DNA of 64,000 bases from Acidimicrobiia bacterium (GCA_965203555.1 CBDBCY010000004.1:1568001-1632000); one strand, 5' to 3'. Counted from the stretch's first letter, positions 8,456-24,804 are shown. Numbers and translations: made by a program. The notes: a model not told the origin generated them from the letters alone.

Positions 8456-10534
8456 TCAGCCGATCGTGACCACTCCCGTCAACGCTCCCACGGCTTGCAA
8501 ACCGTCGAGGATGCTCGTGTACGGGAAGTTGAGTTGGTTCGAGTATGCCTCGATCAACGGTGTGTTGAACAGCGTCACGTAAGGCAGATCCTCGGCAATC
8601 ATGGCATCGGCCTGGTGGATCAGATCACGCGCCTCTGCCAGGGTCTTGGCCCGATCGAACTGATCGGCCAACTCGTCGAAGGCGGGATTGGAGTATCCCG
8701 GCGTGTTGAATCCACCCAGGGCGGAGTCGTTCGCGGAGCGGAAGAAGTCGAAAACGTGATCCGGGAACGGAGTGAGTCCCCACCCCAGGATGTAGATGTC
8801 CCAGAGCAGCGGATCGCCCACGAAGACCTTGTCCACGATCACCGAGAACCCGGTGGGTTCGGCATTGAGCGGTATGCCCAGATCGGTGGCCCACTCCTCG
8901 ATGAAGAGCGAGTAGGTGGCCCTCATGGGGTCGTAACCGGGTCCGGGAGCGAGCAGGGTCAGGGGATCGATGGTCTCTCCGCCGGGACCCAGCAGGCCTT
9001 CACCCTTGGGGATCACGTCACGGTTGCCCTCGTCCCAGGCCGGCTCCACCTCCCAGGTCCAGCCGCCGTCCTTGAGGATCTGCACCGCCGATGCGACCCT
9101 CTCCTGTGAACTCTGGCCAGCGCACGGCGCGGTGATATCGGGGTTGTACCAATAGGCGTTGCCGGGTGGGACCAGCGAGTTGATCGAGTAGGCCGTGCCT
9201 CCCAGCACCGTGTTGGCCACGAAGTCCTTGTCGATCATGCAGGCCAGCGCCCGCCGGAAGGAGGCGTCGTTCATCGGGAACTTGCGAGTGTTGTAAGCGA
9301 GATACCTCATACCGTTCTGATCGTTGACCGCCACTTCGAGACTGGGCGCCGCCAGGATCTCGTTGCGCAGACCGGCCTGCAGACCGAGCGGGTTCAGCAG
9401 GAAGTCCACCTCGCCCTCGGTGAGCGCCAGCACCGCGGCGTTCTGATCGGTGTAGATCGAATAGAGACTCTCGGCGATGAACGGACCTTCGGTGTAGTCG
9501 GCAAGGACGTCACCGCCGGGTTCTCCACCCCAGGTTTCGGTGGCGCCGTCCTTGGTGTACTCCACAGCTCCCGAGCTGTAGACCGTGTACTGGCTACCGG
9601 AGTCCCAATAGGAATCGATTGCCACGTTGCGCCAGAATGCGCCCGGTTCCCACTCCGAGGAGTTGAAGGCGGAAGCGTTGGGAGCACCCAGTCCAGAGGC
9701 GGCGTAGAGCGTCTCGAAATCGTCGGACTCGTCGACGATCGGTCCCCAGAAAGCCTCCTGGAAGATGGAAGCCAGACCCACCGACAGCGGCCAGATGGCC
9801 AGCCCCGGCTCAAAGTTGAAGGTGATCTTGACTGTATGGTCGTCAAGGGCCTCCACCGACGAGACGCCCTGGGAGGATTCGTCGTCCTCGGTGTCGGGAT
9901 CGTCGTCACGGGCCAAAGGCCAGATGCTGGGGAAGTTGCCGCCCAGACCGTTGTACTTCTTGATGGTGTTGAAGGTGAACACCGCGTCGTTGGCCGTGAT
10001 GGGGGACCCGTCCGACCAGGTGATACCTGACAGCAGATTCACAGTGACGGAGAAACCGTCTCCGTCAGCCTCGACCTGGGGGGGGCTCGGGTCTGCCGCC
10101 AACACCGGCACCACCGTGTAGGTCGGACCCTGGTAGGTGTAGAGGGAAATCTGACCGGGAATCACATAGGTGTTCCAGATCTCTGCCTCGGTGTCGAGCG
10201 CCGCCCACGGGTTGTCGGTAGTGGGCGCCGAGAAGATACCCAGCCGGTAGGTGGCGCCCATCGGCATCTCCTCAGGTTCATCCATCTCCTCAGGCTCATC
10301 CATCTCCTCAGGCTCATCCATCTCCTCAGGCTCATCCATCTCCTCAGGCTCTTCCATCTCCTCGGGCTCTTCCATCTCCTCTGGAGCAGAGGTGGTTTCC
10401 GGAGCGGGCGCCTCGGTGGTCGCGGGGGCGTCCGTGGAAATGGTCTCGGTATCTTCGGCGCCGTCCCCACAGGCCGCCGCCACCAAAGCCAGTGCTGCCA
10501 TCAGACAAAGCAAACGTAAAGTTGTGGTTCTCAT
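8456..10534 (-). CDS. ABC transporter substrate-binding lipoprotein, family 5 (OppA/DppA-like)
   Basis: Lipobox VAAAC, WSDGSPITANDAVFT motif, first gene of the opp operon. Confidence 0.92.
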   Translation of the reverse strand: MRTTTLRLLCLMAALALVAAACGDGAEDTETISTDAPATTEAPAPETTSAPEEMEEPEEMEEPEEMDEPEEMDEPEEMDEPEEMDEPEEMPMGATYRLGIFSAPTTDNPWAALDTEAEIWNTYVIPGQISLYTYQGPTYTVVPVLAADPSPPQVEADGDGFSVTVNLLSGITWSDGSPITANDAVFTFNTIKKYNGLGGNFPSIWPLARDDDPDTEDDESSQGVSSVEALDDHTVKITFNFEPGLAIWPLSVGLASIFQEAFWGPIVDESDDFETLYAASGLGAPNASAFNSSEWEPGAFWRNVAIDSYWDSGSQYTVYSSGAVEYTKDGATETWGGEPGGDVLADYTEGPFIAESLYSIYTDQNAAVLALTEGEVDFLLNPLGLQAGLRNEILAAPSLEVAVNDQNGMRYLAYNTRKFPMNDASFRRALACMIDKDFVANTVLGGTAYSINSLVPPGNAYWYNPDITAPCAGQSSQERVASAVQILKDGGWTWEVEPAWDEGNRDVIPKGEGLLGPGGETIDPLTLLAPGPGYDPMRATYSLFIEEWATDLGIPLNAEPTGFSVIVDKVFVGDPLLWDIYILGWGLTPFPDHVFDFFRSANDSALGGFNTPGYSNPAFDELADQFDRAKTLAEARDLIHQADAMIAEDLPYVTLFNTPLIEAYSNQLNFPYTSILDGLQAVGALTGVVTIG
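10266..10381 (-). repeat. 18-bp tandem repeat encoding (EPEEMD/E)n acidic linker
   Basis: About 6-7 copies of CATCTCCTCAGGCTCATC on the + strand. Confidence 0.9.
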
Positions 10535-10808
10535 GTTGGCGTCTCCTTTCTCAATCTGTTCGGATATTTCTTCTGTCAGTTCGGATCGTCCTATTTTGCT
10601 AAAGCAAAAGATAGCCGATTACCAGGCTAAATGTTCCCCGTAGGGGCAGTGGATATATCAATTGCCCATTTCTTCCAACGAATATACGCGGCCAAGGCCA
10701 ACCCTACGCGACCAACTCACTTTCCCCAAACACCTAAACGCAAGATCCTCCTGGTGATCGCTCCCGGCGGACCACTGTCGAAAAGAGGGGCTAACGCCAG
10801 ACGCGAGC

Positions 10809-10830
10809 AATGCTATCATTGATATCATTG
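10809..10830 (+). promoter_or_regulatory. putative FitA operator
   Basis: AATGCTATCATTGATATCATTG contains TGCTATCA, the Neisseria FitAB half-site, ~40 bp upstream of a fitA-like gene. Confidence 0.5.
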
Positions 10831-10854
10831 TCGCGGATTAGCAAAGGAGAAGAC

Positions 10855-11097
10855 GTGGCCAGCATCACGGTCCGTAATCTCGATGAGAGTCTGGAGCGGC
10901 GACTCCGCATCCGGGCGGCCCAGAACGGGCATTCCATGGAGCAAGAGGCGAGAGAAATCCTAAGCGAGGCGTTGCGGAAACCTCTGACAGGCAAGGATCT
11001 GGTGGATGCAATTCGTTGGACTTTCGAGCCCCTCGGGGGGGTTGAGTTGGAACTGCCACCCCGCGGGCCCATGCGCGAACCGCCCACATTCGACTGA
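10855..11097 (+). CDS. FitA-like ribbon-helix-helix antitoxin, copy 1
   Basis: ASITVRNLDESLERRLRIRAAQNGHSMEQEAREIL; GTG start after AAGGAGA. Confidence 0.85.
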   Translation: MASITVRNLDESLERRLRIRAAQNGHSMEQEAREILSEALRKPLTGKDLVDAIRWTFEPLGGVELELPPRGPMREPPTFD

Positions 11098-11176
11098 GCC
11101 AGGGCACTGATCATCCTCGACACCAATCCGTTCGATCAAGCGGCGCATTGACTCCGATAGAGCAGGGAGAAGCAAT

Positions 11177-11422
11177 ATGGCCACCATCACAGTGCGCAAC
11201 CTGGACGAAGACCTGAAGCGACGACTCCGCATCCGGGCAGCCCGGAACGGCAACTCCATGGAACAGGAAACCCGGAACATTCTGAGAACGGCCCTCTACC
11301 AGGAACCCTTGACGGGTGCAGACTTGGTGAAAGCGATCCGTGCCCGATTCGAGCCCCTCGGCGGCGTTGAACTGGAGTTGCCGTCCCGCGAGCCCATGCG
11401 CGAGCCTCCCACATTCGATTGA
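11177..11422 (+). CDS. FitA-like antitoxin, copy 2
   Basis: MATITVRNLDEDLKRRLRIRAARNGNSME; directly upstream of a PIN toxin. Confidence 0.9.
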   Translation: MATITVRNLDEDLKRRLRIRAARNGNSMEQETRNILRTALYQEPLTGADLVKAIRARFEPLGGVELELPSREPMREPPTFD

Positions 11423-11431
11423 GCCAGGGCA

Positions 11432-11866
11432 ATGATCATCCTCGACACCAATGTCGTATCCGAACTGACGCGTCCCGATCCGGATATCGGCGTTATCGAC
11501 TGGGTCACCCGGCAAGCACCTTCGAACTTGTACGTCTCGTCCATCAGCGAGGCCGAAATGCGTTACGGTGTCGAGATCATGCCAGCAGGCAAGCGCCGTG
11601 ACAGATTGCGCGCCGAGATCAAGGGAATGCTGCGGGAAGACTTTGCGGGGCGCATCCTTCCCTTCGACAGCAACGCCGCTCGATCCTATGCCGCAATAGC
11701 CGCCGACCGCCGCTCTGCCGGACGCCCCATAAACCAGGCCGACTGCCAGATCGCGGCGATCGCCCATTCGCTGGGAGCATGGCTCGCAACCCGAAACACA
11801 ACCGACTTCGCAGGATGCGGCATCGACGTGATCGATCCCTGGTCGGACACCCGGGTCAGGGACTAA
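11432..11866 (+). CDS. FitB/VapC PIN-domain toxin
   Basis: MIILDTNVVSE, ADCQIAAIA, LATRNTTDF, IDPW. Confidence 0.92.
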   Translation: MIILDTNVVSELTRPDPDIGVIDWVTRQAPSNLYVSSISEAEMRYGVEIMPAGKRRDRLRAEIKGMLREDFAGRILPFDSNAARSYAAIAADRRSAGRPINQADCQIAAIAHSLGAWLATRNTTDFAGCGIDVIDPWSDTRVRD

Positions 11867-12054
11867 CCCGTGAGTCGCCACTCCTTCAACATCCCAACCC
11901 GGCCGGTTACAGATAGCGGGCGTGAAACACTATGCATAGTTCGCGTTCGGCCCGATGGTCGAGACGCAGTCCTACTGTGCACCCCACGTTTCAAAGCAGA
12001 TTCAAGGAACCGGAACAGGGCGTTTTCGGTCGGTCAATAGGCCCTCGGCACCTT

Positions 12055-12429
12055 TCAGCCCACGGCGGGAGCGGAAGGTCGGATCTCTCCCAGCAGGGGA
12101 ACAAGCCCCTCGACGGGATCCCGATAATACTTGAGATACTCCTCCGTACCGCGGCGGTGGGAGTAGGCGAGGCGTTCTCGTTCGCTCTCCGGGTAGCCAC
12201 ACTGGGTGATGATGTCATCCAGGGTTGAGGTCAGATAGTTGAATTTCACCCACCGATCCTCCTGCCGGTGATGAACCCAGAAAGTGGGATCATCGACATC
12301 GTAGGGACCAAACTTCTCCAAGTCATCCGCCCACCTGCTCACCAAAATGCGCTCTTCTTCACCGAGTGGGTAGGGAGGGCACTGGTGACCGGTCTCACCG
12401 TGTTTGGAACTGTCCATGGGAACCCACAT
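12055..12429 (-). CDS. hypothetical protein downstream of the Type ISP cassette array
   Basis: 124-aa ORF with protein-like composition, co-oriented with the RM gene; family not recognised. Confidence 0.45.
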   Translation of the reverse strand: MWVPMDSSKHGETGHQCPPYPLGEEERILVSRWADDLEKFGPYDVDDPTFWVHHRQEDRWVKFNYLTSTLDDIITQCGYPESERERLAYSHRRGTEEYLKYYRDPVEGLVPLLGEIRPSAPAVG

Positions 12430-12813
12430 TAATCCGCCGCTCTGGATTCACTCCTCCCCATATCCCTGTTTGGCTATACCCGTTCCCGGGGTACCGCCCT
12501 GCCGGCGGGATCGACGGTGTGGAGGTCGGGCAGCATCCCCGCCGCCAAAGCCGCGAAACGGGTTCGGTTGGAGGGGCTGGCGATCAGGATGGCCGTCTGG
12601 GCAGGCTTCGGGTGGGTCGGCCCGTCACATGCAGGTCGGTCAGCGTCGTGGTCACGAGTGTCGCGAACGGGAGTTGCTGGTCTCTCATGATCAGGATGGC
12701 GGTCGTCTGGGTGCGCATCGGGTCTGCCGCCCGGTGGCGCACAGGTCGAAGAGACGGTCGGTTGCGATGATCCCGAACGGAAGTTGGCGGGTGAGGCTGA
12801 CCAGGATCGCCGA

Positions 12814-12825
12814 CCCCCCCCCCCC
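12814..12825 (-). repeat. poly-G tract 3 (G12), selects among C5/C6/C7
   Basis: C12 on the + strand immediately before cassette 5. Confidence 0.9.
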
Positions 12826-13067
12826 GGTCGGTTACCGGGGCATCACCCGGGTCTGCTGACCCGGTCCCATGGCGTGCAGGTCCGGAATCAGACCGGTCGC
12901 CATCACCCCGAAGATCGCCATGTTCGACGGCCCGGTCATCGCTATCGCCTGCGGGGAATAGCCCGGCTCGGCTGGTTGACTCCGGCGGCGCTGAGGTCCG
13001 GAAGGCAGGTTGTGGCAAGGGATCCGAAGATCGCCCGGTTGTTCGGGGAGGTGACGACGAACGCCGG

Positions 13068-13077
13068 CCCCCCCCCC
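13068..13077 (-). repeat. poly-G tract 2 (G10), selects C3/C4/bypass
   Basis: C10 on the + strand immediately before cassette 3. Confidence 0.9.
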
Positions 13078-13196
13078 GGTTTATCGTGCCAGACTGCGTG
13101 GTATCACCCGCGTCTGCTGCGACCCCTTGATCGCCGCCAGGTCTGGCAGAGTCGTCGCGGCCAACGCCTGAAAGGTCATGTTCGAGGTCCCCGAGA

Positions 13197-16100
13197 TCAG
13201 GATCGCCGACGGGGTATGACCCGGCAGGCTTGTGATATTCCTCCCCCTTTGAGATCGCAGATCCGAGCGGTGGCGAGGACTGAGAAGATGGTGGAGTTCG
13301 ATCCCGTGGAGACGAGAATTCCCCGAGCCCCCCCCCCCGCTTCCCTATTTGTGCTTTCCTCGCGTGGGAACATCTTGGAAACGGTCTTCACAGACGAGAG
13401 GATGCGGTCATCCTCATACAGCCACAGTTTGGTGAACGGGCGATAGAGCACCTCCCTAACGCGAGATTCGTCAAATATGATCTCCTTGTTCGCTTTCAGG
13501 GCCTGCTTCAAGGTGGCGGTCCATTTGATGGTTTTGAGATTGTCGTTCCTAGTGGCTTGCCGGAAGGTGATTTCACCCTCCTCAACAAAGAACCGCATAT
13601 CTTCATACTCGTCAATGAGCGCCTTGATTCTGGCAATCAGATCGTCCCGAGAAAACGAATACACGTAAGTATCGCAATTGGTTTTCACGCCCGATGCGTG
13701 CTCCGCAACAGCACTACGCTCCTGCTTGTTCGTGGAACAGACCGGCAGCAGCTTCTCAAAGGTACCGTCGGTCAGGTTCACCCAGTCGTGGCGATCGTTG
13801 ACCGGCACCGTCTCGAACTGATCGCTGGTCACGTCCCCCAGTTCCGCCAGCCAGGCGAACTTCTGATCCAAGGTGGAGTATTCGGGTACTTCCGCGTAGC
13901 GGAGAGCGCCGGAGCCGGTCAGGCCCTCCCGTGGATTGCGGACCAGGACGGTGATCTGCACGCCGTTGCGCGATCCCCCACCGAACAGTTTGTCACCCTC
14001 TCGACGAAACTCCTCACCGCTCTTGTAAGCGTCCCCCCGCAGGTTGACCACATAGAGGTCGGTGAATTCGTCGCGTAACGCGGCCCGCATGCCCGCCAGG
14101 GCGGTACCCGTAGCGAGGGAATTGGGATGGATGAACGCCAACACCCCCCCCCCCCGCGGCGCGTCTGGAGTCGCCCAGTCGGTCCGAGGCCCACCGGAAC
14201 GACTTCACATACATATTGCCCGCCGCGTTGCCGCCCGGGGCGCGTCCGGTGACTTCCTTGTGCCGTCTTCCGTAGGTGTCTCTGACCCGTTGTTCGACGT
14301 CCTCATGGACGATGTTCGGGTTGTCGTCCCCGGCAGACTTCTGCCCGGCCGACCAGGGAGGATTCGCCGCTATCACCCGGATGTCCCGCTCGTCCTGGGA
14401 GACCGCCCGTCGAGGGTTCCGGTCCAGGCCGAGCCTTCCCGTCACCGCTCCGGCCAGCGTGTCCCGCAGAACTATGCCCTCGAACGGACGATACCCATCC
14501 TCGAACACTCCGCGAGAGGCGGCGGCCTGCTCGATCTTGAGAGCGGCGATGTAGTAGGCCAGCAGCACCAGATCGTTGGCGTGCAGTTCCTGTTCGTATT
14601 TGCGGACCGCGTCCCGGTCGGATATGAGCGGTTCCCCGTCGGTGTCCGCCAGGGTCAGCAATCTGGAGATGAAAGTGCCGGTCCCGGTGAAGGGATCGAG
14701 TATCTCCACGGCCGGTTCGCTCAGGGAGTAGCCGAAGTGCTTCCGGCACACCGCCTGGGCGCTGCGGAGCATGAAGTCCACCAGGGGAATCGGGGTGTAG
14801 ACGATGCCCAGACGCGCCACCACCTCGGGAACCGCCGATTTGAAGAACCCCTCGTACACGTCCTGGAGGACCTGCAGCTTGGAGGCGACGGGATCGGCGT
14901 CCTCGGAGACATCCTCGAACACCCTGGCAATGCGGTCGTAGGAGCGCTGCAGGGGCTCGATCAGATGATCGAAGTCGAGCCCGGCGTCCCTCAACTCCTC
15001 CATCACCGCGTTGAGGTGTTGGGAAACCGGATTCCGGTCAGCGAAGAGGTGCTCGGCGAAGAAGGCGTCGAACACCGGGATGGTGACCGCATGCTGGGCG
15101 ATCATCTCGGCAGCCTCGGCGCGGCTGAAGGTGGGTATGACGGTTTCTCGGATCTGTTCGGCGAAGGTGTCCAGGGCTTCCGCCGCCCGCCCGTGGCCGG
15201 TTTTGCTCCGAATCTCCGAAAGCACCTTCCGGTAGACCCCGGCGGCCCGGTTGCCCCAGGACGCCCAGTAGTGCCGGTCGCCCACCTGTTCCACCAGCAC
15301 CGACGCTATCTTCGGCAACAGATCGATCTCGGGAAGAGTCGGCTGGTCAGGTTTTCCGGCTGAGGGGTCGTCACCGGTCTTGTCGATGATTCGCAACGGC
15401 GCCTTCTCGGCCAGGCCGGGAGCGTTGACCAAGGCGTCGAAACGCTCGTCGTGGGCGCGGAGTGCCCGGCAGACCCTCCACACCTGTTGGAATGCGGAAC
15501 TTTTCAGAAACTCCTCGGATTGGAGGGTTTCCCCGTCGGGCACCAAAACCGGCACCACGATATAGCCCCTCTGCTTGCCGGGAGCGCGTCTCATCACCCG
15601 CCCCACCGCCTGCACGATATCGATCTCCGACTGACGGGGCGCCAGAAACAGCACGGCGTCCAAGGCCGGGATGTCCACCCCCTCGGAGAGGCAACGGGCG
15701 TTGGTCAGCACCCGGATGGTGCCGGGCGGCTGATCGGCGCCCTTCAACCATCCCACCCGTTCCGACCGCACATAGGCGTTCTGCTTGCCGTCGATGTGTT
15801 CCACGTCCAAGGCCAGCACCGCTCGATTCCGATAATCCTTGGAACGGTCCTGCTGATAGCTGTCGCACAGCCGGCGCCAGTGCTCGGCGACCTTCTTGGA
15901 GTTGACGATCTTGTTGGTGAAAGCGATCGCTCTGCGGCAGTGGTAGTCGGGGTTGAGCATCCCGGCGGCCCGGTCTCTTTCCACCCCCAACGTGGTGGGA
16001 TCGGCCAGGGCGTCCCAGCACCCCACCAACTGCACCCAGTCCTCGGCGTTGAGAATCTGCGACCGGGGCACTTTGCCGGTGGTCTCCCCGTACTGTTTCT

Positions 16101-17361
16101 GGTAATTCTCATAGCTTTCTATGGCATGCTGCTCGCGGTAGGCGATCACCACCACCTGGTAGTCCGACAGCAACTCCGCCTCGATGGCGTCATAGAAACT
16201 CTGCTCGTAGAGAAGCGGCCCATAGAGGAACTCGTCGTCCATGGAATACACCTCCCGCCCTGACCTCCTCCAACCCGCCGCGTAGATCCGCTGGGTGGCG
16301 GTCATGAACAGGCGCCTCCGAGCGTCGAGGCGAGCGGGGTTGTGCACCAGTTGGAAGGGACTCTCCTTTTCTTTGGACCGTTCCACGCCGGTGGTGCGGT
16401 GGGCCTCGTCGCAGATCACCAGATCGAACTCGGGCACGCCCAGGTACTGAGCGTCGCAGACCACCGGCAGCGACTGGTAGGTGGAAAAGACCACGGTCAT
16501 CGCCTCCGGCGCCTCCCGTTTGAGCTTGGAGGCGATCCTCTCGGCGCTGGTGGTGGGTGGCATGGCCAGTTCCATCAGATCGGCGTCCTCGGAGTCCCGG
16601 CCCGACCGGGCGTCCGAGCAGACCGCCAGGTAACGGTGCGGAATCTCCGGATCGCCCTGATATGCCCAGGTCCGCATGGTCTGGCTCATCAGGGCGATGG
16701 AGGGAACCAGATAGAGCACCCGGCCACCCAGACCCACGTTGCGCTCCGCCGCCCACAATCCCACCTCCGACTTTCCCGACCCGCAGGGCATGAGCACCCT
16801 CCCCCGGCTGGAGGGGTGCGAGCCGAACAACCCGTTGCCGATCGCATCCAGCGCTTCTTCCTGGTGCGGGCGGGGAATGTGACGTTCCTCGCCCCAGCGC
16901 AGAGTCTGATCGGGGCGTTCGATAAGATTTCGCCAGTCCCCCACCGGCCAGTTGTCGAGATCGTTCTTGGTGATGATCTGGGTGGAGGCGTCGTTGAGTT
17001 TCTTGCGGGCATTGGCGGAATAGTTGCCGGTGGCCACAAAGATGCGCTCCTCCCACACATCCGCCACCGTGTTGGACAGGAACTTGTTCACCTCGGTGAT
17101 ACTGACCGAACCCGACTTGTAGAACTTGCACTGAATGGCGCACAGCCCGCCCTCTTTCAGTTCACCCACCAGGTCGATGCCGATATCGCCGCCGCCCCGG
17201 CCGGGCCACTCCGACCACAGCCACAGTTTGTCGAAGCGATCCCGGTACTGCGGATTGACCAGGAGGGCTTTGCGGATCAGCTTCTCGAAGGCCCGACCTC
17301 GCTGATACCTCCCGGTGTGATCGGCTCGCAGGCGATCCAGCGCTTCGGCGAGATGCGGCAT
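13197..17361 (-). CDS. Type ISP restriction-modification enzyme (LlaGI/LlaBIII-like: Mrr nuclease, SF2 helicase, N6-MTase, partial TRD); frameshifted at poly-G, probably phase variable
   Basis: FEKL..DIGIDLV..AIQCKFY nuclease; PCGSGKS and DEAH helicase; LGIVYTP, DPFTGTG and NPPW MTase; GVKTNCD, LYRPFTK TRD start. About 1387 aa if the tract is G11. Confidence 0.92.
13328..13338 (-). repeat. poly-G tract 1 (G11), selects C1/C2/bypass
   Basis: C11 on the + strand immediately before cassette 1. Confidence 0.9.
14144..14155 (-). repeat. poly-G ON/OFF tract (G12, OFF) inside the Type ISP methyltransferase domain
   Basis: C12 on the + strand at the junction of ORFs 14014-17361 and 13197-14144; G11 joins them in frame. 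Confidence 0.9.
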
Positions 17362-17452
17362 CAGACTCTTTCTATCAAGTTCTGGCTACTGTCGAATACA
17401 TTGAACACAAGGGTACAATGAGAAGACCGTCCGCATATTTCTCCCGTAGCCC

Positions 17453-18187
17453 ATGTCCGTTCCCCCCGGCACGCTCATCGAACTGCCTCCCGAGCAGCAC
17501 GACCGCGACAACATCACCGACTGGTGCCTTGACCAATTCCGGGACCACTATGGAGACGGGGCCATCACCAAGGACGACATCTGGGAGTATCTGTACGGGG
17601 TGATGCACGCCCCCGACTGGCGGGAGCGATACCGGCACGACCTGCAGCGCAACCTGCCGCGGGTGCCGTTCGCTCCCGACTTCGAGGCATTCGCCGCGGC
17701 GGGCCGTCACCTCATGGATCTGCACATCAACTACGAGACCGTCCCCGAATGGCCGCTTACCTGCCTGGTGGACGATCAGCCCGACGAGGGCGGTTCCGAT
17801 CCCGACGCCTACCGGATCACTCAGAGGAAGATGAGGTGGGGGAAAGACGCAGCCACCAGGACCGCGGACCGCAGCGTGTTCATCATCAACGACCGGTGCC
17901 GGCTGGTGGGCATACCACCCGAAGCCCACGAATACACGGTTTCGGGACGTTCACCGCTGGAATGGGCCATCGACAGCCTGCGCTGGAAACACAACAAGGC
18001 GTCGGGGATAACCGACGATCCCAACGGCTGGCATGCCTGGGCGGACGAGCCGTTCAACCTGATCCGCCACCTCCGCCGCCTCGTCCACATCTCGATCCAC
18101 ACCGCCCGAACCGTGAAGTCCCTGCCGCCTTCGCTGGCGGAACCACAGTCCCCGGGCTCGGCAGACAACCCAACCCCCGAACACTGA
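17453..18187 (+). CDS. stand-alone C-terminal part of the Type ISP specificity domain
   Basis: DNITDWCLDQFR..ITKDDIWEYLYGVMHAPDWRERY..DLQRNLPRVP..LMDLHINYE..GIPPEAHEYTVSGRSPLEW..SGITDDPN: the region that follows the variable segment in single-chain Type ISP enzymes. Confidence 0.88.
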   Translation: MSVPPGTLIELPPEQHDRDNITDWCLDQFRDHYGDGAITKDDIWEYLYGVMHAPDWRERYRHDLQRNLPRVPFAPDFEAFAAAGRHLMDLHINYETVPEWPLTCLVDDQPDEGGSDPDAYRITQRKMRWGKDAATRTADRSVFIINDRCRLVGIPPEAHEYTVSGRSPLEWAIDSLRWKHNKASGITDDPNGWHAWADEPFNLIRHLRRLVHISIHTARTVKSLPPSLAEPQSPGSADNPTPEH

Positions 18188-18436
18188 TGTGATCACCTGA
18201 AAGACACCGGTACTTCCCTTCCCATTTTTGGGCACGGAATACCTCGGTCCGTCTTCACATCCACCAGGACCACTATCGGAATCCCCCCTGTGGTGAACCC
18301 TCCGATTGCCGCGCGACATCTTTGCGAGGAAAGTCCATCTCCACTCCGTACGGCCTGGCAAGGACTCCGCGGATTTCTGTTTCGGAGAACCTCTTCAGCG
18401 CTGAGGCGAGGACCTCGGAAACGCCGAGGGGTGCGA

Positions 18437-18751
18437 TCAAGAAACGCCGGCGGGTATCAGCGCGGTGATCTCTTTCGCCAAGTCGGCCGGCATGAGAGAG
18501 AGGATGGCTGACCGCTTCTGGTCGGACATTCGTGCCAGTCGCCTTGCCGATATGTGAGCCGGCAGCTCACGGGTGTCCCCGATCTGCTCTTCGAGGGAGC
18601 ACTGGTAGAACAGGGAGTCCGCAAGGTCAGCCAACCAGGCGCGCTCTTCCGGAGTGGCAGGCCGACTACGGACATCGTCGAAGGACACATTCGGGTCCTC
18701 ACACAGCGCGATGATCTCCTCATGATCGAGCTTCCCCATAGACCAAAACAT
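18437..18751 (-). CDS. hypothetical protein
   Basis: 104-aa ORF with protein-like composition; unrecognised. Confidence 0.4.
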   Translation of the reverse strand: MFWSMGKLDHEEIIALCEDPNVSFDDVRSRPATPEERAWLADLADSLFYQCSLEEQIGDTRELPAHISARRLARMSDQKRSAILSLMPADLAKEITALIPAGVS

Positions 18752-18867
18752 AGTGGTCGGTCGAGACCGGACAGGCCGGTGGTTGGCTGGCGTCGCAAAT
18801 GTCGCCGCCCAGAGGACCGAACACGGCGTTTTCCCACGCGGTCACAACCGCGCTGTTTTCGGTCTTT

Positions 18868-19185
18868 TTATCGAACCGCGGTCACCTCGAGGTGGACGCC
18901 CTCGTGCTGCTGGATGCGGCTGATGACCTCGAACAGGTTGCGGGCATGGGGATTGCCGTCCGGTCCGAACATGCGCATGAGACTCTTGGGATGCTTATTC
19001 GTCAGAGAGCCAAGCTTCTCGAACCCCATGGTGGCGTTTATGTAGTCGCGCAGTACGATCTTGCCCGCATCTAGGTCCCCCGCCAGCAGACATTCGACAC
19101 TTTCTTTGAGCAATTCTTCTCGAAACGCCGGGTCACCCTCGGCGCGGGCCTGCACAGTCTCTTTGAAGTCACAGGTTAGTGGCAT
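18868..19185 (-). CDS. HigA-like (HI1420-type) addiction-module antidote, HTH
   Basis: LRDYINATMGF..L..MFGPDGNP..NLF; overlaps the upstream toxin gene. Confidence 0.85.
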   Translation of the reverse strand: MPLTCDFKETVQARAEGDPAFREELLKESVECLLAGDLDAGKIVLRDYINATMGFEKLGSLTNKHPKSLMRMFGPDGNPHARNLFEVISRIQQHEGVHLEVTAVR

Positions 19186-19517
19186 CTTTTACCTCCTGTT
19201 TCTTGCGATGCTTGTACTCTTGCCAAAGTTCACGAGCGCTTTCAATGTCCCTTTGCCGGCGCGCTTTGGTCCCACCGCCGAGCAGGATTATCAATGCGCC
19301 TCCGTCTTGGCCGAAATAGACCCGGTAGCCCGGGCCGACTTGTATGCGGCGCTCCAGCACACCGCTGCCGACACCCTTCACATCGGACAGATTTCCCGCC
19401 TCCAGAACGTGCAAGAACCGTCCTCACCCTGGATGCGGCACTGGCGTCGAGCCTGCCGAACCAGCGACCGAACGGACTGCGGCCCCAGTAATCGACGTAT
19501 TCCCTGACCTCCGTCAT
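19169..19517 (-). pseudogene. RelE/HigB (HI1419-type) toxin, frameshifted near 19405
   Basis: MTEVREY..GRSPFGRWF in one frame; EAGNLSDVKGVGSGVLERRI..GPGYRVYFG..LLGGGTK in another. Confidence 0.82.
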
Positions 19518-19579
19518 ATGGTAACGCTACCGTTACCGTCATGCAGAAGCTGGATGTTCGGCATGCTTCATCCTCCACT

Positions 19580-19806
19580 CTTCCGCCCCTCGAGTGGGCG
19601 ATCGACAGCCTGCGCTGGAAGCACGACAAGGCATCAGGAATAACCGACGATCAGAACGGATGGCCTCCTGGACCGACGAACCGTTCAACCTGATCAGACA
19701 TCTGCGGCGGCTCGTGTACGTGTCGGTCGAGACCGCCCGGATCGTGAAATCGCTACCGCTCCCCCTGGAGCCTCAGCAACCCGACTCCTCCGAAGAGAGT
19801 TGCTGA
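19580..19806 (+). pseudogene. 3' remnant of a second Type ISP C-terminal gene
   Basis: Diverged nucleotide copy of ~17950-18150 (PLEWAIDSLRWKHDKASGITDD...DEPFNLIRHLRRLV) with a frameshift. Confidence 0.85.
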
Positions 19807-19892
19807 AGCTCTGAACATCGCTCCCGGCGGTACGTCCGGCGGTGATAAGGTCATGGTCGAGGGGGCCCCGATACGAACAGAAGGAGCGTCTG

Positions 19893-20900
19893 ATGACCCC
19901 TATGTACTTTGAGGAGGATTCCGACCTGAGGCATCTCGCAGGCCGGACCATCTGCATCGTCGGATACGGCAACCAGGGTCGCTCGCAGGCCCTCAACATG
20001 CGGGACAGCGGGCTCGGGGTAATTGTGGGGAGCCGTCGGGACGCCTCTTACCAGACAGCCCTGCAGGACGGCTTCGCGGTGTTTCCGGTTGGGGAAGCGG
20101 TAGCGCGTTCCGATGTGATCTTCCTTCTGGTTCCCGACGAGGTGATGCCCCAGGTCTACGAGGAGGATGTCGCCCCCAACCTCGTGCCCGGCAACATGCT
20201 GGTTTTTGCCAGCGGCTACAACATCGCCTTCGGCCTGATCACACCCTCCTCCGATGTGGACGTGGTCTTGATCGCTCCTCGAATGATCGGCGCAGGAGTC
20301 AGGGACACCTACCTGAGCGGAGAGGGCTTTCCCAGTCTCGTCGCCGTTCACCATGCCGCCACCGAGACGGCCTTCGAGCGGATGCTGGCCCTCTGCGAAG
20401 GGATAGGGTCCACCAGGATGGGCGTGATCGAATCCAGTTTCCTGGAGGAGACGACCGTGGACCTGTTCGCCGAACAGGTGGGCTACCTCTACGCGGTGCG
20501 CCGCTATTGCGAAGTACTGGTGGAGGCCGGTTGCAGTCCCGAGGCGGCCATGCTGGAATTCTATGCCTCGGGTGAGGGCATCGAGACCGCCAAAGCGTAT
20601 CGTGACATCGGGCTCTGGGACCAGATCACCCTGCATTCCCGCACCAGCCAGTACGGGCAGGAAGTGACCAGCCGACTCTCCGCCGAGGAGGAGGAAACCG
20701 AGCGGGACAGGCTGAGAGCGATCATCGCCCACATCCAGGACGGGTCTTTTGCCCGGGATTGGACCGCGGAACAGCAGTCTGGATTCCCCGAGTTCAACCG
20801 GGTCAGGGCGCTGAACATGGCCCATGAAATGCGAACGGCCGAGAGAAGGCTCTACCAAGTGCTGGGACGGATACCGGACAACGGGACAGCTCTGTCCTAA
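19893..20900 (+). CDS. ilvC: ketol-acid reductoisomerase (class I IlvC-like, divergent)
   Basis: IVGYGNQGRSQALNMRDSG, LVPDE, EETTVDLFAEQ, HSRTSQYG, IQDGSFARDW. Confidence 0.8.
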   Translation: MTPMYFEEDSDLRHLAGRTICIVGYGNQGRSQALNMRDSGLGVIVGSRRDASYQTALQDGFAVFPVGEAVARSDVIFLLVPDEVMPQVYEEDVAPNLVPGNMLVFASGYNIAFGLITPSSDVDVVLIAPRMIGAGVRDTYLSGEGFPSLVAVHHAATETAFERMLALCEGIGSTRMGVIESSFLEETTVDLFAEQVGYLYAVRRYCEVLVEAGCSPEAAMLEFYASGEGIETAKAYRDIGLWDQITLHSRTSQYGQEVTSRLSAEEEETERDRLRAIIAHIQDGSFARDWTAEQQSGFPEFNRVRALNMAHEMRTAERRLYQVLGRIPDNGTALS

Positions 20901-20941: not shown

Positions 20942-22078
20942 CTATGACGGCCAGAGCAGACCGTCCCTCAGGACCCGGTGAAAGGTGGCCAACGGCCAAA
21001 CCTGGATACCGTCCTCGGACTGGAAGGACCGCCGCCCGTTATAGACCAGAATGCGGCGGGTTAGCCCAGCCAGGCCTGCTATTGCCCGCAGACCCTTGAG
21101 CATGGTGAGGTTGTATTGACTGGTCGATTTGACTCCGATCGCCAGCCGCTCGTTGTCGCGGGTCAGAACGAAGTCGACCTCGGTCTGGGATTGAGCCGGC
21201 GCCCAGTAGGCGATGTCATCGAACAGAGGCTGCCACTGGGCATGGGCGCGAATCGCGCCGAACACCCACCCCTCGAACAGGGCACCGCGTTCCTCGGGGG
21301 TGACCGGCCCGAATTGCCGCTTCACGGCCCGCACCAAATCGGGATCCACCCAGTAGAGCTTTGGACGGCGCCTTTCCCGAACTCTCAACTTGGTCTCCAG
21401 TGCCGACAGTCGGGTGATCATGAGAGTGTCCTCCAGGATTCCCAGATAACCGGCCACCGTCGATCGGGCCACGCGGGCATCCCGGGCCAAGCTCGCCGAG
21501 TTGACAGTCTGGGCATCCATGAGGGCAGCAACCGGAAGGAATCGAACGAACCCCGGGAGGTTCCGCACGGCCGCCTCCGCCCTGACTTCCTCGCGCAGAT
21601 ACAGCTGTGTGTAGCTCTGAAGCACCCGTCGGCGGTCACCGGACGTCCACACCAAAGGGCTGGTTCCGTACCGGAGCGCATCGACGAGTTTGAAGTCCTT
21701 GCCCAGTTCGGCGGCGGTGGGCGGATGCATCTCCACGTGGAGAGCCCGCCCGGCCAGCAGGTTGGTCCCCGCCGTCTTCAGTTTGTGCGCGCTGGAACCC
21801 AGCAAGGCAAACCGGATGCTCCGGGTCTCGATCAGCCTGTGGATCTCGTTGAGCAGACTCGGGATGCGCTGGACCTCGTCGACCACCACCCATTCGCCAC
21901 CCCGTCGTTGTGAAACCAGATCACGGAACAACACCGGATCGGCCAGCAGATCGGTGAACAGGGCTTCGTCCAGCAGGTCGAAATAGATGGCGTCCGGAAA
22001 GGCGGAACGAGCCCACGTACTCTTTCCAACCCCTCTGGGACCGAACAGAAAGAAGCTTCGGTCGGGAATCCCGGTCAA
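20942..22078 (-). CDS. AAA+ ATPase, AAA_14/DUF4143 family
   Basis: GPRGVGKST, VDEVQR, LAGRA, KLYWVD, EVDF C-terminus. Confidence 0.88.
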   Translation of the reverse strand: MTGIPDRSFFLFGPRGVGKSTWARSAFPDAIYFDLLDEALFTDLLADPVLFRDLVSQRRGGEWVVVDEVQRIPSLLNEIHRLIETRSIRFALLGSSAHKLKTAGTNLLAGRALHVEMHPPTAAELGKDFKLVDALRYGTSPLVWTSGDRRRVLQSYTQLYLREEVRAEAAVRNLPGFVRFLPVAALMDAQTVNSASLARDARVARSTVAGYLGILEDTLMITRLSALETKLRVRERRRPKLYWVDPDLVRAVKRQFGPVTPEERGALFEGWVFGAIRAHAQWQPLFDDIAYWAPAQSQTEVDFVLTRDNERLAIGVKSTSQYNLTMLKGLRAIAGLAGLTRRILVYNGRRSFQSEDGIQVWPLATFHRVLRDGLLWPS

Positions 22079-22217
22079 CCTCGGATAGATCGCAGTTGGA
22101 GAGAATTGTGCGTCATACCGTCAAAAAACGCCGATAAGTGACGGCTATGTATGCATTTTGCACAATGCGTGAGGGATCCGGAAGGCCTGATCCGGGTCCC
22201 GGCCACCTGCGTATCTT

Positions 22218-23504
22218 CTAAACCTCCTGAACGAGTCCTTCGCACCGCCTGCGGGTCCCTTCCTCAGTGACTGCCGGTTCTGGACGTTTCCATAGGCGTA
22301 CGATGAACCGATGTTCCTCTTCGATCAAGTCGGGCTCGGTTCCATTGTGAGCCAACATGGCCGGGATCACCTTGCATCGTATCCCCATGCCGCGGGCGTC
22401 CACATACCGATAGTCGCGCATCACGTTGACCAGCGTCTGGTTCCGGGCGTAGCGCATGCCCGATTTCATTCCCTCCAACGTAACGGTGTTGGGCAATCTG
22501 CCCGGGCTGTGAACCTCGAGCCGGTCGGAGAAGATCAACAGGGTTACGTCCGTGCCGACGATGCTGTAATCTCGATGGACCAGGGCGTTGACCAGGATTT
22601 CCCGGACCGCTTCTTCAGGAAACTCCCAACCGTCGATCCGTCTGGGCCCTTCCAAACGAGCAAACGGTGTGGTGTTGCGCCGAACGAAGTCCCACGCCCC
22701 CTCGACAACCCCGGTTTCGACAATCCGGCCGTCCCTGGAAAGCAGAGGAACCAAGGCGCCCTTGATCGACTCGTCCGCCCGCACCGTATAGTCCGGTTCC
22801 TCGCCGGGATAGCATATGGCCCGGATTCCGGACTGCGGCAGGAAGCGTCCCGTGTTCAGCCCGAAGATGAGCATCCCATCGACAGTGGGCACGGTTTTCC
22901 CTCCCGAAACCACCGCAAAACCCAGGTTGCGCAACAGCGTCTCCCATCCGTCAGAACCTTGAGAGGGAATGTCGCCGTAGTCCAAAACGCGGGTGAAGTA
23001 ATCCTGCAACCGGCGATGATCCACATCTTCGATGTCAGCACCCAACACGGGTTTCAGCCCGTAACGAAGCCCTCCCGACTGCTGATACAGTCGTTGCTCC
23101 TCTTCACGGGAGGCGTCTCGAGTGGTCGTCCCCGCTCGTACCTTGGTTATCCACCCACCTCCCTGTTTGACCTTGTAGGGCTTGTCCGGCGCATTCTGAG
23201 CCAGGTAGATGACACCGATGCCGATACCCGACCCCAACTGCAACACCTGCCACGAAGGTATCAGGGCGGGCTGAATATGATCCCTGGCCACTTGCATGAT
23301 CCATTCTTCAGTTTCTTTCGACTCACGGGCAAGACCGGTGATCGTTCCGTCGTCCTCGACCCCCAGAAGGATGTGTCCGCCTTCCAGGTTGAGCAGAGCA
23401 GCCACTTCGGCCGCAAGCTTCCCTGGGCGGACATCGTCACGCTTGAACTCAACAGCAGAACTCTCGCCGTTTCTTATCATCTCCAGCAGGTCGGTTCTGT
23501 TCAT
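22218..23504 (-). CDS. AlbA_2 (Schlafen-like) + HATPase_c_4 domain protein
   Basis: GESSAVEFK..LNLEGGHILLGVEDDG..G; REILVNALVHRDY; SPG; RN..L..G.G. Confidence 0.85.
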   Translation of the reverse strand: MNRTDLLEMIRNGESSAVEFKRDDVRPGKLAAEVAALLNLEGGHILLGVEDDGTITGLARESKETEEWIMQVARDHIQPALIPSWQVLQLGSGIGIGVIYLAQNAPDKPYKVKQGGGWITKVRAGTTTRDASREEEQRLYQQSGGLRYGLKPVLGADIEDVDHRRLQDYFTRVLDYGDIPSQGSDGWETLLRNLGFAVVSGGKTVPTVDGMLIFGLNTGRFLPQSGIRAICYPGEEPDYTVRADESIKGALVPLLSRDGRIVETGVVEGAWDFVRRNTTPFARLEGPRRIDGWEFPEEAVREILVNALVHRDYSIVGTDVTLLIFSDRLEVHSPGRLPNTVTLEGMKSGMRYARNQTLVNVMRDYRYVDARGMGIRCKVIPAMLAHNGTEPDLIEEEHRFIVRLWKRPEPAVTEEGTRRRCEGLVQEV

Positions 23505-23557
23505 GAGCCGGTCCCCGACACCAGGGCGTGTTGACGCTTTTGGGGGGGCAGACTTCT

Positions 23558-24775
23558 TCATTTTCGTTGTTTGATCGGGCGTCGGCGCGTGGATCGGCGT
23601 CGGCCGCTCCGGTACTTAGGTCGGGGTGGGCGTCCCCATTGGGTGGGTGGCGGGCGGAGCCGGTAGGCGCCGGTTGTAGTGCGTTCAACCTGCCAGTCAT
23701 TGTCGTGTACTTTGTGGTGGCATCTGCTGCACAGAAGACACATGTTGTCCAGGTTGGTGGGACCCCCGTCTTGCCAGTGGACAATGTGGTGGGCCTGGCA
23801 CCAGGAGGCTTTGGCGCCGCAACCGATGCAGGCCCGGTCGCGGGCGACCAGCGCGGCCCGTTGGGAACCGCTGGCCGTCCGCCGGGCCCGTCCCAAATCC
23901 AGCGGTACCGACGGTCCCGAGAAGATGGCCGGGAGGACTTGCGCGTCGCAGGCCAACTCGCGTAGCGTCTGGGCGGGGAGGGGGGTTCCGTTCTCTAGGC
24001 GAGGGTTGCCCAACTGTTGGCTGACCGCGTCGTAGTCGGCGATCAACAACAACCTCACGTCCTGAGACCGACCGTCTTTTCCTTGGCGGGTGACCAGTTC
24101 GGCTATGGCGTCGGCCATCCGCTGACCCGCAGTAGCCCGATCGGTGGGGTCCTCTTTGTGCCACAGATCCTTCATCATGTGAGACACCGCCGTCTCGACC
24201 CGGGCACCGGTGACCGGGTCGAAACGCCCATACAACACGGTCATTCCGTCGTCTTGGTCGGTGGTGAGCTTGGCGAACCGGCGGGAACGCTGATGCTCCA
24301 ACTTCGACACACCATCATCCTCTGAACGCTTCTGTTCGTGTTTGCGGACCATGCGGGCGAACTTGTCAGGAGACTGGGAACGGGCACCGTCCAACAATTC
24401 ATTCTCGTCAATGGTTCCCCTCTGGTTGGCGCCCGCCAGGATACGCGCGTTGTCAGCAGAGATCTCTCCCTTTTGGAAACCTTCCCGCGTCTTGGGCAGT
24501 TCCTCCAACCCCCGGGCGGTCTCCACCTCCGACCGGGCCTTCCGACGGCCCAACAGCCCGTCCTCCCGCAATATCGTTTCCACCTTCTCCGTTCCCTGGC
24601 GGCGGCGCAACTCCGACACCGCCTGGGCGCGGACCGCCGCCACTTGGTTCTGGACGCGGATGGTGGACTGTATACGCTGTTTCAGTTCTTCGACCGACGC
24701 CTCCACGACCGGCATGGTGGGTGACAGCAACTTGGCCAGGTTGGCGGACCGCCGACGGTTGACTGCTTGTTTCAT
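23558..24775 (-). CDS. DUF222-HNH endonuclease (13E12/REP13E12-like)
   Basis: QRMADA, LACDA, RDRACIGC..CQAHHIVHWQDGGPTNLDNMCLLCSRCHHKVH; likely leaderless start at ATG 24775. Confidence 0.9.
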   Translation of the reverse strand: MKQAVNRRRSANLAKLLSPTMPVVEASVEELKQRIQSTIRVQNQVAAVRAQAVSELRRRQGTEKVETILREDGLLGRRKARSEVETARGLEELPKTREGFQKGEISADNARILAGANQRGTIDENELLDGARSQSPDKFARMVRKHEQKRSEDDGVSKLEHQRSRRFAKLTTDQDDGMTVLYGRFDPVTGARVETAVSHMMKDLWHKEDPTDRATAGQRMADAIAELVTRQGKDGRSQDVRLLLIADYDAVSQQLGNPRLENGTPLPAQTLRELACDAQVLPAIFSGPSVPLDLGRARRTASGSQRAALVARDRACIGCGAKASWCQAHHIVHWQDGGPTNLDNMCLLCSRCHHKVHDNDWQVERTTTGAYRLRPPPTQWGRPPRPKYRSGRRRSTRRRPIKQRK

Positions 24776-24781
24776 GCCTAC

Positions 24782-24804
24782 AGTATGCACAGGGGGTGTG
24801 ACAA
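24782..24804 (-). promoter_or_regulatory. RecA-NDp/PafBC-like promoter motif
   Basis: TTGTCAC-ACCCCCTGTG-CATACT, 6 nt before the ATG; near-identical motif at 35252. Confidence 0.55.

Follow-up and report, generated by a model that had tools for sequence, protein, structure and literature searches.

A predicted two-subunit Type ISP restriction–modification enzyme with a split specificity domain and a repeat-linked array of alternative C-terminal cassettes

Two divergently transcribed genes in the 64,000-nucleotide stretch of Acidimicrobiia DNA analysed here (the window) likely encode a two-subunit Type ISP restriction–modification enzyme whose specificity is chosen by repeat slippage. In Type ISP enzymes all activities reside in one polypeptide, which is the 'SP' of the name (PMC3936762, available text). 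That trait is absent here, and likewise in about 70 related loci: nuclease, SF2 ATPase with ISP coupler and gamma-class methylase are present in the large gene, but a complete specificity domain (TRD) needs both genes. The evidence consists of the anatomy and conservation of the locus, the enrichment of repeats in it, selection on its cassettes, and differences in tract length between samples. The split is most readily understood as the cost of switching specificity through repeats. With less assurance, we also favour a more specific reading, in which a clade of sponge symbionts uses nested repeats as a decision tree, giving one gene up to seven base-reading loops (2-10 in relatives) with the constant half of the domain supplied in trans.

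The large gene lies on the minus strand and is read in two frames. The first (14156-17361) encodes an Mrr-type nuclease, an SF2 helicase-like ATPase, the ISP coupler and the N-terminal part of a gamma-class N6-adenine methylase (NPPW). Pfam searches of the large ORF matched Mrr_cat_2 (E 1.9e-22, residues 36-147), ResIII (2.9e-14), Helicase_C (3.7e-07) and ISP_coupler (1.3e-22), and DEAD too. The N6_Mtase family by itself scored 18 bits, under the cut-off of 20.4; the product of the ORF (P0001) contains an ANPPW motif in a region that aligns with the methylase parts of LlaBIII and LlaGI, and its residues 18-1065 correspond to LlaBIII 30-1078 (E 1e-177). The second frame (13339-14143, minus strand) encodes the remaining, C-terminal part of the methylase, then the constant N-terminal half of the TRD up to the loop before the cassette. 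Residues 2-266 of this frame correspond to LlaBIII 1081-1334 and to LlaGI chain index 918-1179, and the minus-strand frame 13197-14204 matches positions 5-150 of the Pfam family Type_ISP_C (E 6.4e-23).

Between the two frames, inside the methylase, lies poly-G tract 1 (G12, 14144-14155, minus strand). The 1115-amino-acid ORF at 14014-17361 (minus strand) quits the true frame at this tract and runs to a stop at 14014, which accounts for the G/R/P-rich nonsense of its last 50 or so residues. By frame arithmetic, a G11 tract joins the frame of the 1115-amino-acid ORF to the frame ending RVIPRRRS. Tract 1 can thus be read as an ON/OFF switch, out of frame at G12 and in frame at G11, and on the assembled sequence the window copy would be in the OFF state. 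The original prediction had the large gene end at RVIPRRRS; the frame 13197-14204 does end there, but the prediction had passed over the G12 tract that breaks the gene as assembled. Of 63 large ORFs, 50 were uninterrupted upstream, 11 were interrupted and two reached a contig edge. Tract 1 was in frame in four of five congeners, which have a G10 tract with a different flank.

The constant C-terminal half of the TRD, comprising the rest of the core and the guide subdomain, is encoded by a gene of its own on the plus strand (17453-18187, 244 amino acids), with an ATG start and an in-frame TAG two codons upstream. The motifs DNITDW, ITKDDI, LPRVP and GRSPLEW all lie in this ORF, and its product matches positions 165-341 of the 342 in Type_ISP_C (E 4.8e-50), in agreement with the claim of the original prediction that this half forms an intact ORF. 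The domain is thus shared out between two genes on opposite strands, with Type_ISP_C positions 5-150 in the large one and 165-341 in the small one. Residues 38-226 of the small protein (P0002) correspond to LlaBIII 1403-1573 and also to LlaGI index 1231-1401, and LlaBIII is tiled end to end by three pieces (30-1078, 1081-1334 and 1403-1573). The observation of a split specificity domain therefore stands, apart from the overlooked frameshift. The best solved match to the small protein was the site-specific adenine methyltransferase 7LO5/7LVV (1029 amino acids), which we take to be the Type IIL enzyme DrdV; residues 19-226 match 824-1026 of 7LO5 with E 3.9e-33. Unlike the proteins described here it is contiguous and has no helicase, and the match implies that the constant half is a module shared with helicase-less single-chain restriction–modification enzymes.

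The two genes stand head-to-head, as predicted, with starts at 17361 (minus strand) and 17453 (plus strand). The 91-bp divergent intergenic region between them (17362-17452) is lower in G+C than its flanks and contains the sequence TACAAT about 35 nucleotides ahead of the ATG of the small gene. Sigma-70 consensus sites numbered 0 in 12200-18500 against 1.1 expected, a consensus that is uninformative for an actinobacterium. The spacer of the window is without a long G or C tract. Many relatives have further long G/C tracts within the divergent spacer, or shortly ahead of or at the 5′ end of the large or small gene (at 9914, 9917 and 9922 in L025, L026 and L027, at 5197, 5175 and 5438 in L034, L035 and L038, and at 9991 in L047), and these could be extra on/off or promoter-strength switches.

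Downstream of the constant N-terminal half, between 13319 and 12474 on the minus strand, are seven homologous cassettes of about 40 amino acids, each closed by a stop and spread over three frames. Three further poly-G tracts on the same strand are placed so as to act as three-way switches among them. At tract 2 (G11, 13328-13338) the assembled length leads to cassette c1 (ILVSTGSNST...RVIPRRRS, 13197-13319), which is in frame as assembled downstream of tract 1. One added nucleotide would lead to c2 (ILISGTSNMTFQAL...RVIPRSLAR, 13081-13203), which has orthologues in nine A-clade loci, and one lost nucleotide would lead on to tract 3 (G10, 13068-13077). There, a gain of one would give c3 (FVVTSPNNRAIFG...RAIPRRR, 12942-13061) and a loss of one c4 (IAMTGPSNMAIFG...RVMPR, 12832-12945), while no change would lead on to tract 4 (G12, 12814-12825). 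The three frames beyond tract 4 lead to c5 (ILVSLTRQLPFG...CAPRRPPS, 12691-12807), c6 (ILIMRDQQLPFA...SLPRRPS, 12584-12697) and c7 (ILIASPSNRTRFA...AVPRERV, 12474-12590). These routes follow from reading the minus strand in three frames. Four of the 18 G/C runs of at least 10 nucleotides in the genome fall within 1.35 kb at this locus.

Tract lengths in other sequencing runs were taken from Logan contigs of four runs, in which heterogeneity within a population is not visible and homopolymer lengths are prone to assembly error. With that reservation, tract 1 was 12 nucleotides long in run X1, 11 in X2 and 10 in X3, which represents a diverged strain, and lengths of 12 and 11 occurred in contigs alike otherwise over 331 nucleotides. 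For tract 4 the window has 12, and X1 and X4, both from a single sample, have contigs with 11. Public contigs break off at tracts 2-4.

Other kinds of variable element were considered. An invertible, shufflon-type element was rejected, with no inverted repeat linking the cassette ends to the spacer or the small gene and no recombinase among the scanned ORFs. One 492-nucleotide contig joins 13172 to 17563 on opposite strands. It has roughly 8 to 25 times the depth, with six mismatches and sides of 35 nucleotides; we read it as coming from a relative with collinear gene order and do not take it for an inversion within this strain. As for a diversity-generating retroelement, no reverse transcriptase was found among the scanned neighbours.

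In the mechanism that we propose, the large subunit would comprise nuclease, translocase, coupler, methylase and the N-terminal half of the TRD, with one cassette of about 40 amino acids at its end. Tract 1 would turn the whole enzyme on or off. At each of tracts 2-4 the length of the repeat would send the ribosome to the next cassette, to the one after it or to the next tract, so that every protein would end in exactly one cassette. The invariant C-terminal 240 amino acids of the TRD would be made from their own gene and would dock onto the large subunit, an arrangement that makes sense because a frameshift would ruin anything encoded downstream. Slipped-strand mispairing at replication would alter the tract lengths, and a clonal population would then mix cells of different DNA specificities with cells that have no enzyme. 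We infer the assembly of the two proteins, the differing specificities of the cassettes and the rate of switching at the DNA level from the features of the locus. A point against the proposed reading is that the distal cassettes would follow a linker of 40 to about 250 amino acids encoded out of frame. If the decision tree is correct, the locus provides many methylation and restriction specificities, one per cell lineage and a single slippage apart, and amounts to a multi-state epigenetic and defence switch without a recombinase.

The cassettes appear to correspond to a base-reading loop of the known enzymes. With P0125, a contiguous relative, as the bridge, the cassette motif D-L-x...G..Q..R..PR can be aligned with DMHVIGGQARNLPRF of LlaGI; the alignment is collinear between strong flanks and has an E value of its own of 0.035. 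With an offset of 164, the aligned LlaGI residues are H1368, G1372 and Q1373. In the LlaGI structure these are the Loop VI contacts to the +3 base pair, and a β-hairpin (1347-1358) precedes them (PMC4872093, available part). The seven cassettes vary most at the positions equivalent to H1368, G1372 and Q1373, with an indel of two residues as well. The constant part of the large subunit contains Loops IV and V, leaving the rest of the core and the guide to the small one. The best reading of these alignments is that the cassette would form the β-hairpin and Loop VI of the TRD core.

To model the complex, the last 315 amino acids of the large subunit, including the cassette, and the small protein were each supplied as an alignment of relatives. 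The predicted complex had an ipSAE of 0.91 (0.90, 0.91 and 0.91 in separate runs), compared with 0.00 for the best of three controls; the mark set by this complex is also reached by 116 of 157 solved complexes and by 2 of 215 mismatched pairs. The models contained 193-196 contacts, of which at least 92% agreed between runs, the partner pLDDT was 87-88, and cassette residues 276-314 lay inside the modelled interface. The model supports binding of the two proteins, with the qualification that its score may stem from the memory of the predictor for the single-chain LlaGI and LlaBIII. What the score would indicate is a likeness to the halves of a known fold, as expected of two halves of one domain.

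The hypothesis that slippage chooses among cassettes was examined across related loci. Nearly every split locus has an array of 2-10 alternative cassettes of about 40 amino acids, each ended by a stop. In 51 of 64 large-ORF 3′ parts there was exactly one in-frame cassette ending no more than 12 amino acids from the stop; of the remaining 13, two had two matches, three ended more than 12 amino acids from the stop, six had no match and two ran off the contig. The lengths of the 51 ORFs ranged from 307 to 624 amino acids, from which it follows that different genomes sit at different cassettes. At least one repeat with a unit that is not a multiple of three was present in 69 of 77 arrays and absent from eight. 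The array repeats comprised 100 mono-, 22 di-, 19 tetra-, 3 penta- and 1 heptanucleotide repeats, and in loci lacking homopolymers the corresponding place was taken by (GA)n, (CCGA)n, (GGAC)n, (GGAGC)n or a heptamer. The density of frame-shifting repeats was 2.75 per kb in the arrays and 0.077 per kb elsewhere in the same loci. The locus thus has two traits of a contingency locus, namely coding repeats with units not divisible by three, far over background, and lengths that differ between near-identical contigs, where assembly error is possible. According to the original prediction, the split moved the variable segment to a free C-terminus as frameshift-based cassette choice requires, and both the single terminal cassettes and the repeats in the arrays are consistent with it.

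An evenly drawn sample of the class gave the same picture. The domain was found in 25 of 401 genomes. TRD repeats or more than one cassette match occurred in none of 14 genes encoded in one stretch, a weak negative given that the cassette HMM was tuned to this clade and these contiguous genes are distant. Of the loci encoded in two stretches, five out of six had 2-18 cassettes together with repeats (G542 and G502:C79 were left out of this count). Splitting and cassette arrays therefore co-occur in the comparison that the original prediction had proposed. Off-frame ORFs of 216 and 317 amino acids arise by chance inside the large gene, and open pass-through frames are for that reason weak evidence alone.

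It is conceivable that slippage happens mainly in transcription or translation, so that each cell holds several specificities at once; the rationale for the split would be the same. Tracts of 10-12 G could in principle slip a polymerase or a ribosome, and a preprint on M. bovis mod1 describes, in its available part, frameshift suppression at repeats in out-of-frame constructs (10.64898/2026.04.01.715767). Against simultaneous isoforms, samples and genomes differ in the tract lengths of the DNA itself. In many loci, moreover, the repeats are di-, tetra- and pentanucleotides with as many as 33 units, and repeats of these kinds are typical of replication slippage. We therefore regard simultaneous isoforms as unlikely and prefer slippage at replication.

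The repeats might instead merely silence the enzyme, and the extra cassettes might be duplicates in decay that contribute nothing to specificity. In favour of this, restriction–modification genes often have ON/OFF tracts, tract 1 puts the window copy out of frame, and interruptions occur in 11 of 63 large ORFs. Decay is hard to reconcile with the cassettes themselves. Eight cassette types are kept across nine loci; in the reading frame of each cassette, 78 variable columns fall at first, 57 at second and 169 at third codon positions. The third-position excess extends to cassettes that are out of frame in this assembly. This comparison was made cassette by cassette, since whole-array nucleotide alignment across the loci was too noisy (50-69% identity), and the codon pattern indicates selection on the cassettes as translated sequence. 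In addition, each cassette has a stop in its own frame, and the 51 ORFs that end in one cassette do so at varying depth in the array. These results make pure on/off control a still less probable account than simultaneous isoforms, and favour a choice among functional cassettes.

A third possibility is that silent cassettes serve as donors for gene conversion or deletion, as in pilin or vls systems, with repeats acting only as on/off switches or hot spots. The cassettes of the window are direct repeats with conserved ends in common (AILI..., ...PRRR), and the content and order of cassettes vary somewhat between genomes. On the other hand, all read-through frames are open, and assembled ORFs reach distal cassettes without rearrangement. 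Repeats lie exactly at the branch points, and no recombinase family was detected among the ORFs scanned in 10.8-24.8 kb. Recombinational exchange is accordingly given little credence, less than pure on/off control, and slippage at the branch points remains the preferred mechanism.

The split architecture was found widely. A search limited to proteins of 134-427 amino acids returned 486 stand-alone homologues of the C-terminal half; the best 120 of these were 66-99% identical and all had PF18135, many on megabase contigs. Nine of 201 genomes in a sample of the family had a match. A split copy was present in five congeners at 80-86% identity, in every case head-to-head with the same tracts. Species-representative genomes yielded 79 further loci, mostly from sponge-associated Acidimicrobiia with a few from Dehalococcoidia and Caldilineaceae, which are kin and not independent samples. 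About 70 of the related loci are split, in three gene orders. The small gene followed the large gene and array in 34 of the 79, preceded the large gene and array in 21 and was head-to-head with the large gene in 11; another 11 were orphans or at a contig edge and two were fragments. As one order among three, the divergent orientation is evidently not itself required.

It is scarcely credible that the window holds a recent inversion or misassembly, or that the small ORF is what is left of a broken gene: one inversion of the block with the large gene could turn the large-then-small order into the head-to-head one, and a decayed copy of the 3′ end of the small gene lies at 19574-19800, but the same head-to-head split recurs in 11 other loci of 74-87% identity from both short-read and long-read assemblies, 29 sequences of the small protein share 74 invariant columns, and a repeat search of 12000-18800 turned up no inverted repeat between the cassette ends and the 91-bp spacer or the small gene. 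The relatives did not have the contiguous gene that either accident would predict, all five congeners and about 70 loci being split. Judged by this comparison the split is not an assembly error and did not arise by a recent accident; the locus is a real, conserved and probably functional two-gene Type ISP system.

A quick IQ-TREE tree was built from 95 C-half sequences, leaving out L095 and L098 (fragments) and L018-L020. One clade of 74 rows (SH-aLRT 99) contained all rows of the three gene orders together with the contiguous protein P0125; contiguous proteins otherwise fell outside. On this tree the head-to-head order had two origins. L018 and L020 (56% identity) resemble contiguous genes, but each has two cassettes in two frames behind an AG repeat, (AG)19 or (AG)27. 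The large ORF of L020 ends in the second cassette, with the C-terminal half in a separate frame of 350 amino acids. L018 (2647-7782, minus strand) has a 1711-amino-acid frame in which both cassettes are read out of frame and the C-terminal half follows; P0126 is alike. The pass-through frame behind (AG)n in the L018/P0126 lineage is open into the C-terminal half, giving the 1711-amino-acid 'fused' ORF. Truly contiguous proteins (P0127, P0131-P0141 and P0125) have one in-frame cassette and then DNITDW. The pattern of the L018/L020/P0126 lineage, set against that of the truly contiguous proteins, suggests that the split architecture may have arisen more than once.

In some genomes the large genes number two or three, all with cassette arrays of their own, and outnumber the small genes (L082, L083, L069 and L115); in G521 (L115) three N-terminal and two C-terminal halves lie within 14 kb. 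Several large subunits might share one constant subunit; if the decision tree is correct, the constant half would sometimes perhaps be supplied to two or three of them at once.

The enzyme resembles LlaGI and LlaBIII of Lactococcus (PDB 5FFJ and 4XQK) in domain order and in a sequence that is collinear throughout, and the cassette matches the Loop VI region which, in the parts of the structural reports available, reads bases. LlaGI and LlaBIII are single chains with one fixed Loop VI, whereas here the TRD is cut after Loop VI and seven alternative Loop VI cassettes are accompanied by repeats in the coding sequence. In principle, though not by homology, the arrangement recalls the single-chain Helicobacter pylori Type IIG enzymes JHP1272 and HP1353-HP1354, which have two homopolymer switches, the first ON/OFF and the second altering C-terminal specificity, giving two states (PMC3936762, available text); in our locus the ON/OFF tract lies in the methylase and the later tracts in the array. 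According to the same text, an extra C-terminal TRD piece is present or absent in the H. pylori enzymes and substitutes for part of the regular TRD. Here, by contrast, nested three-way switches would pick one of up to seven replacements of an internal loop (2-10 in relatives), and the downstream part of the TRD is in a separate gene.

Random switching of methylase expression or specificity in a population, by slippage of repeats or by recombination, is likewise a property of the phasevarions, phase-variable Type I hsdS and Type III mod systems (PMC7383803, PMC5909438 and PMC7394358, available parts). Type I systems use inversion or recombination between whole hsdS TRDs, or truncation; here a 40-amino-acid loop would be exchanged, and neither inverted repeats nor a recombinase were found at the locus. 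In Helicobacter canadensis a homopolymeric tract near the 3′ end selects alternative C-terminal sequences (available text of PMC2823697); those tails, so far as that text goes, differ from the ordered array of homologous cassettes and the trans-encoded rest of the domain seen here. The nested three-way switches over many loop cassettes, a TRD in two genes and the Type ISP setting are new. The literature searched, which lay outside most subscription journals and supplements, contained no description of a split or multi-cassette Type ISP enzyme.

A widespread natural two-subunit form of Type ISP enzyme shows where the recognition domain can be cut, and an exchangeable loop module of 40 amino acids bears on the re-engineering of specificity, a stated aim of the LlaGI structure paper (PMC4872093, available part). 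The proposed switch would extend repeat-driven phase variation from on/off or two-state control to an ordered choice among many states without recombination. It would also supply a reason for splitting a domain, in that a frameshift switch can rewrite only a C-terminus. Ecologically, such a system points to intense and changing pressure from phage or mobile DNA in sponge microbiomes, and multi-state methylomes are possible in uncultured Acidimicrobiia and Chloroflexota. For annotation, loci of this type get called frameshifted pseudogenes plus 'hypothetical protein', as the source names of the homologues show.

The region around the locus contains further genes. The decayed copy at 19574-19800 (plus strand) is frameshifted and corresponds to roughly the last 75 codons of the small gene (residues 164-242, 55-67% identity); it is found 1.4 kb downstream from the intact copy, just ahead of ilvC (19842-20900). 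A RelE/ParE-family toxin gene (TIGR02683) at 18868-19517 (minus strand) is broken over two frames and has an upstream partner of 105 amino acids; the same toxin pair is intact in L021 (9214-9863, minus strand), inside an 850-bp gap between divergent restriction genes. On the array side, two tandem FitA-like antitoxin genes are followed by a PIN-domain (VapC-type) toxin gene (10795-11866, plus strand). The ORFs at 18437-18837 and 12055-12429 matched no Pfam or NCBIfam family. Beyond ilvC, 20942-24790 (minus strand) encodes an AAA_14/DUF4143 ATPase, a Schlafen AlbA_2/HATPase_c_4 protein and a DUF222-HNH endonuclease; these and the restriction locus may be parts of one defence or mobile island.

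The G/C homopolymers of the genome are bimodal in length, with 161 runs of 7 nucleotides, 10 of 8, one of 9 and 18 of 10-13. Other long tracts on contig C4 include those at 393304, 1051029, 1430061, 2328445 and 3137411. Long tracts outside the locus lie in or beside genes for a helicase with N6_Mtase/MmeI_Mtase, an Eco57I-type methylase, a DUF499 protein, an acyltransferase-3 and an SLH-domain protein, and these are probably further contingency loci.
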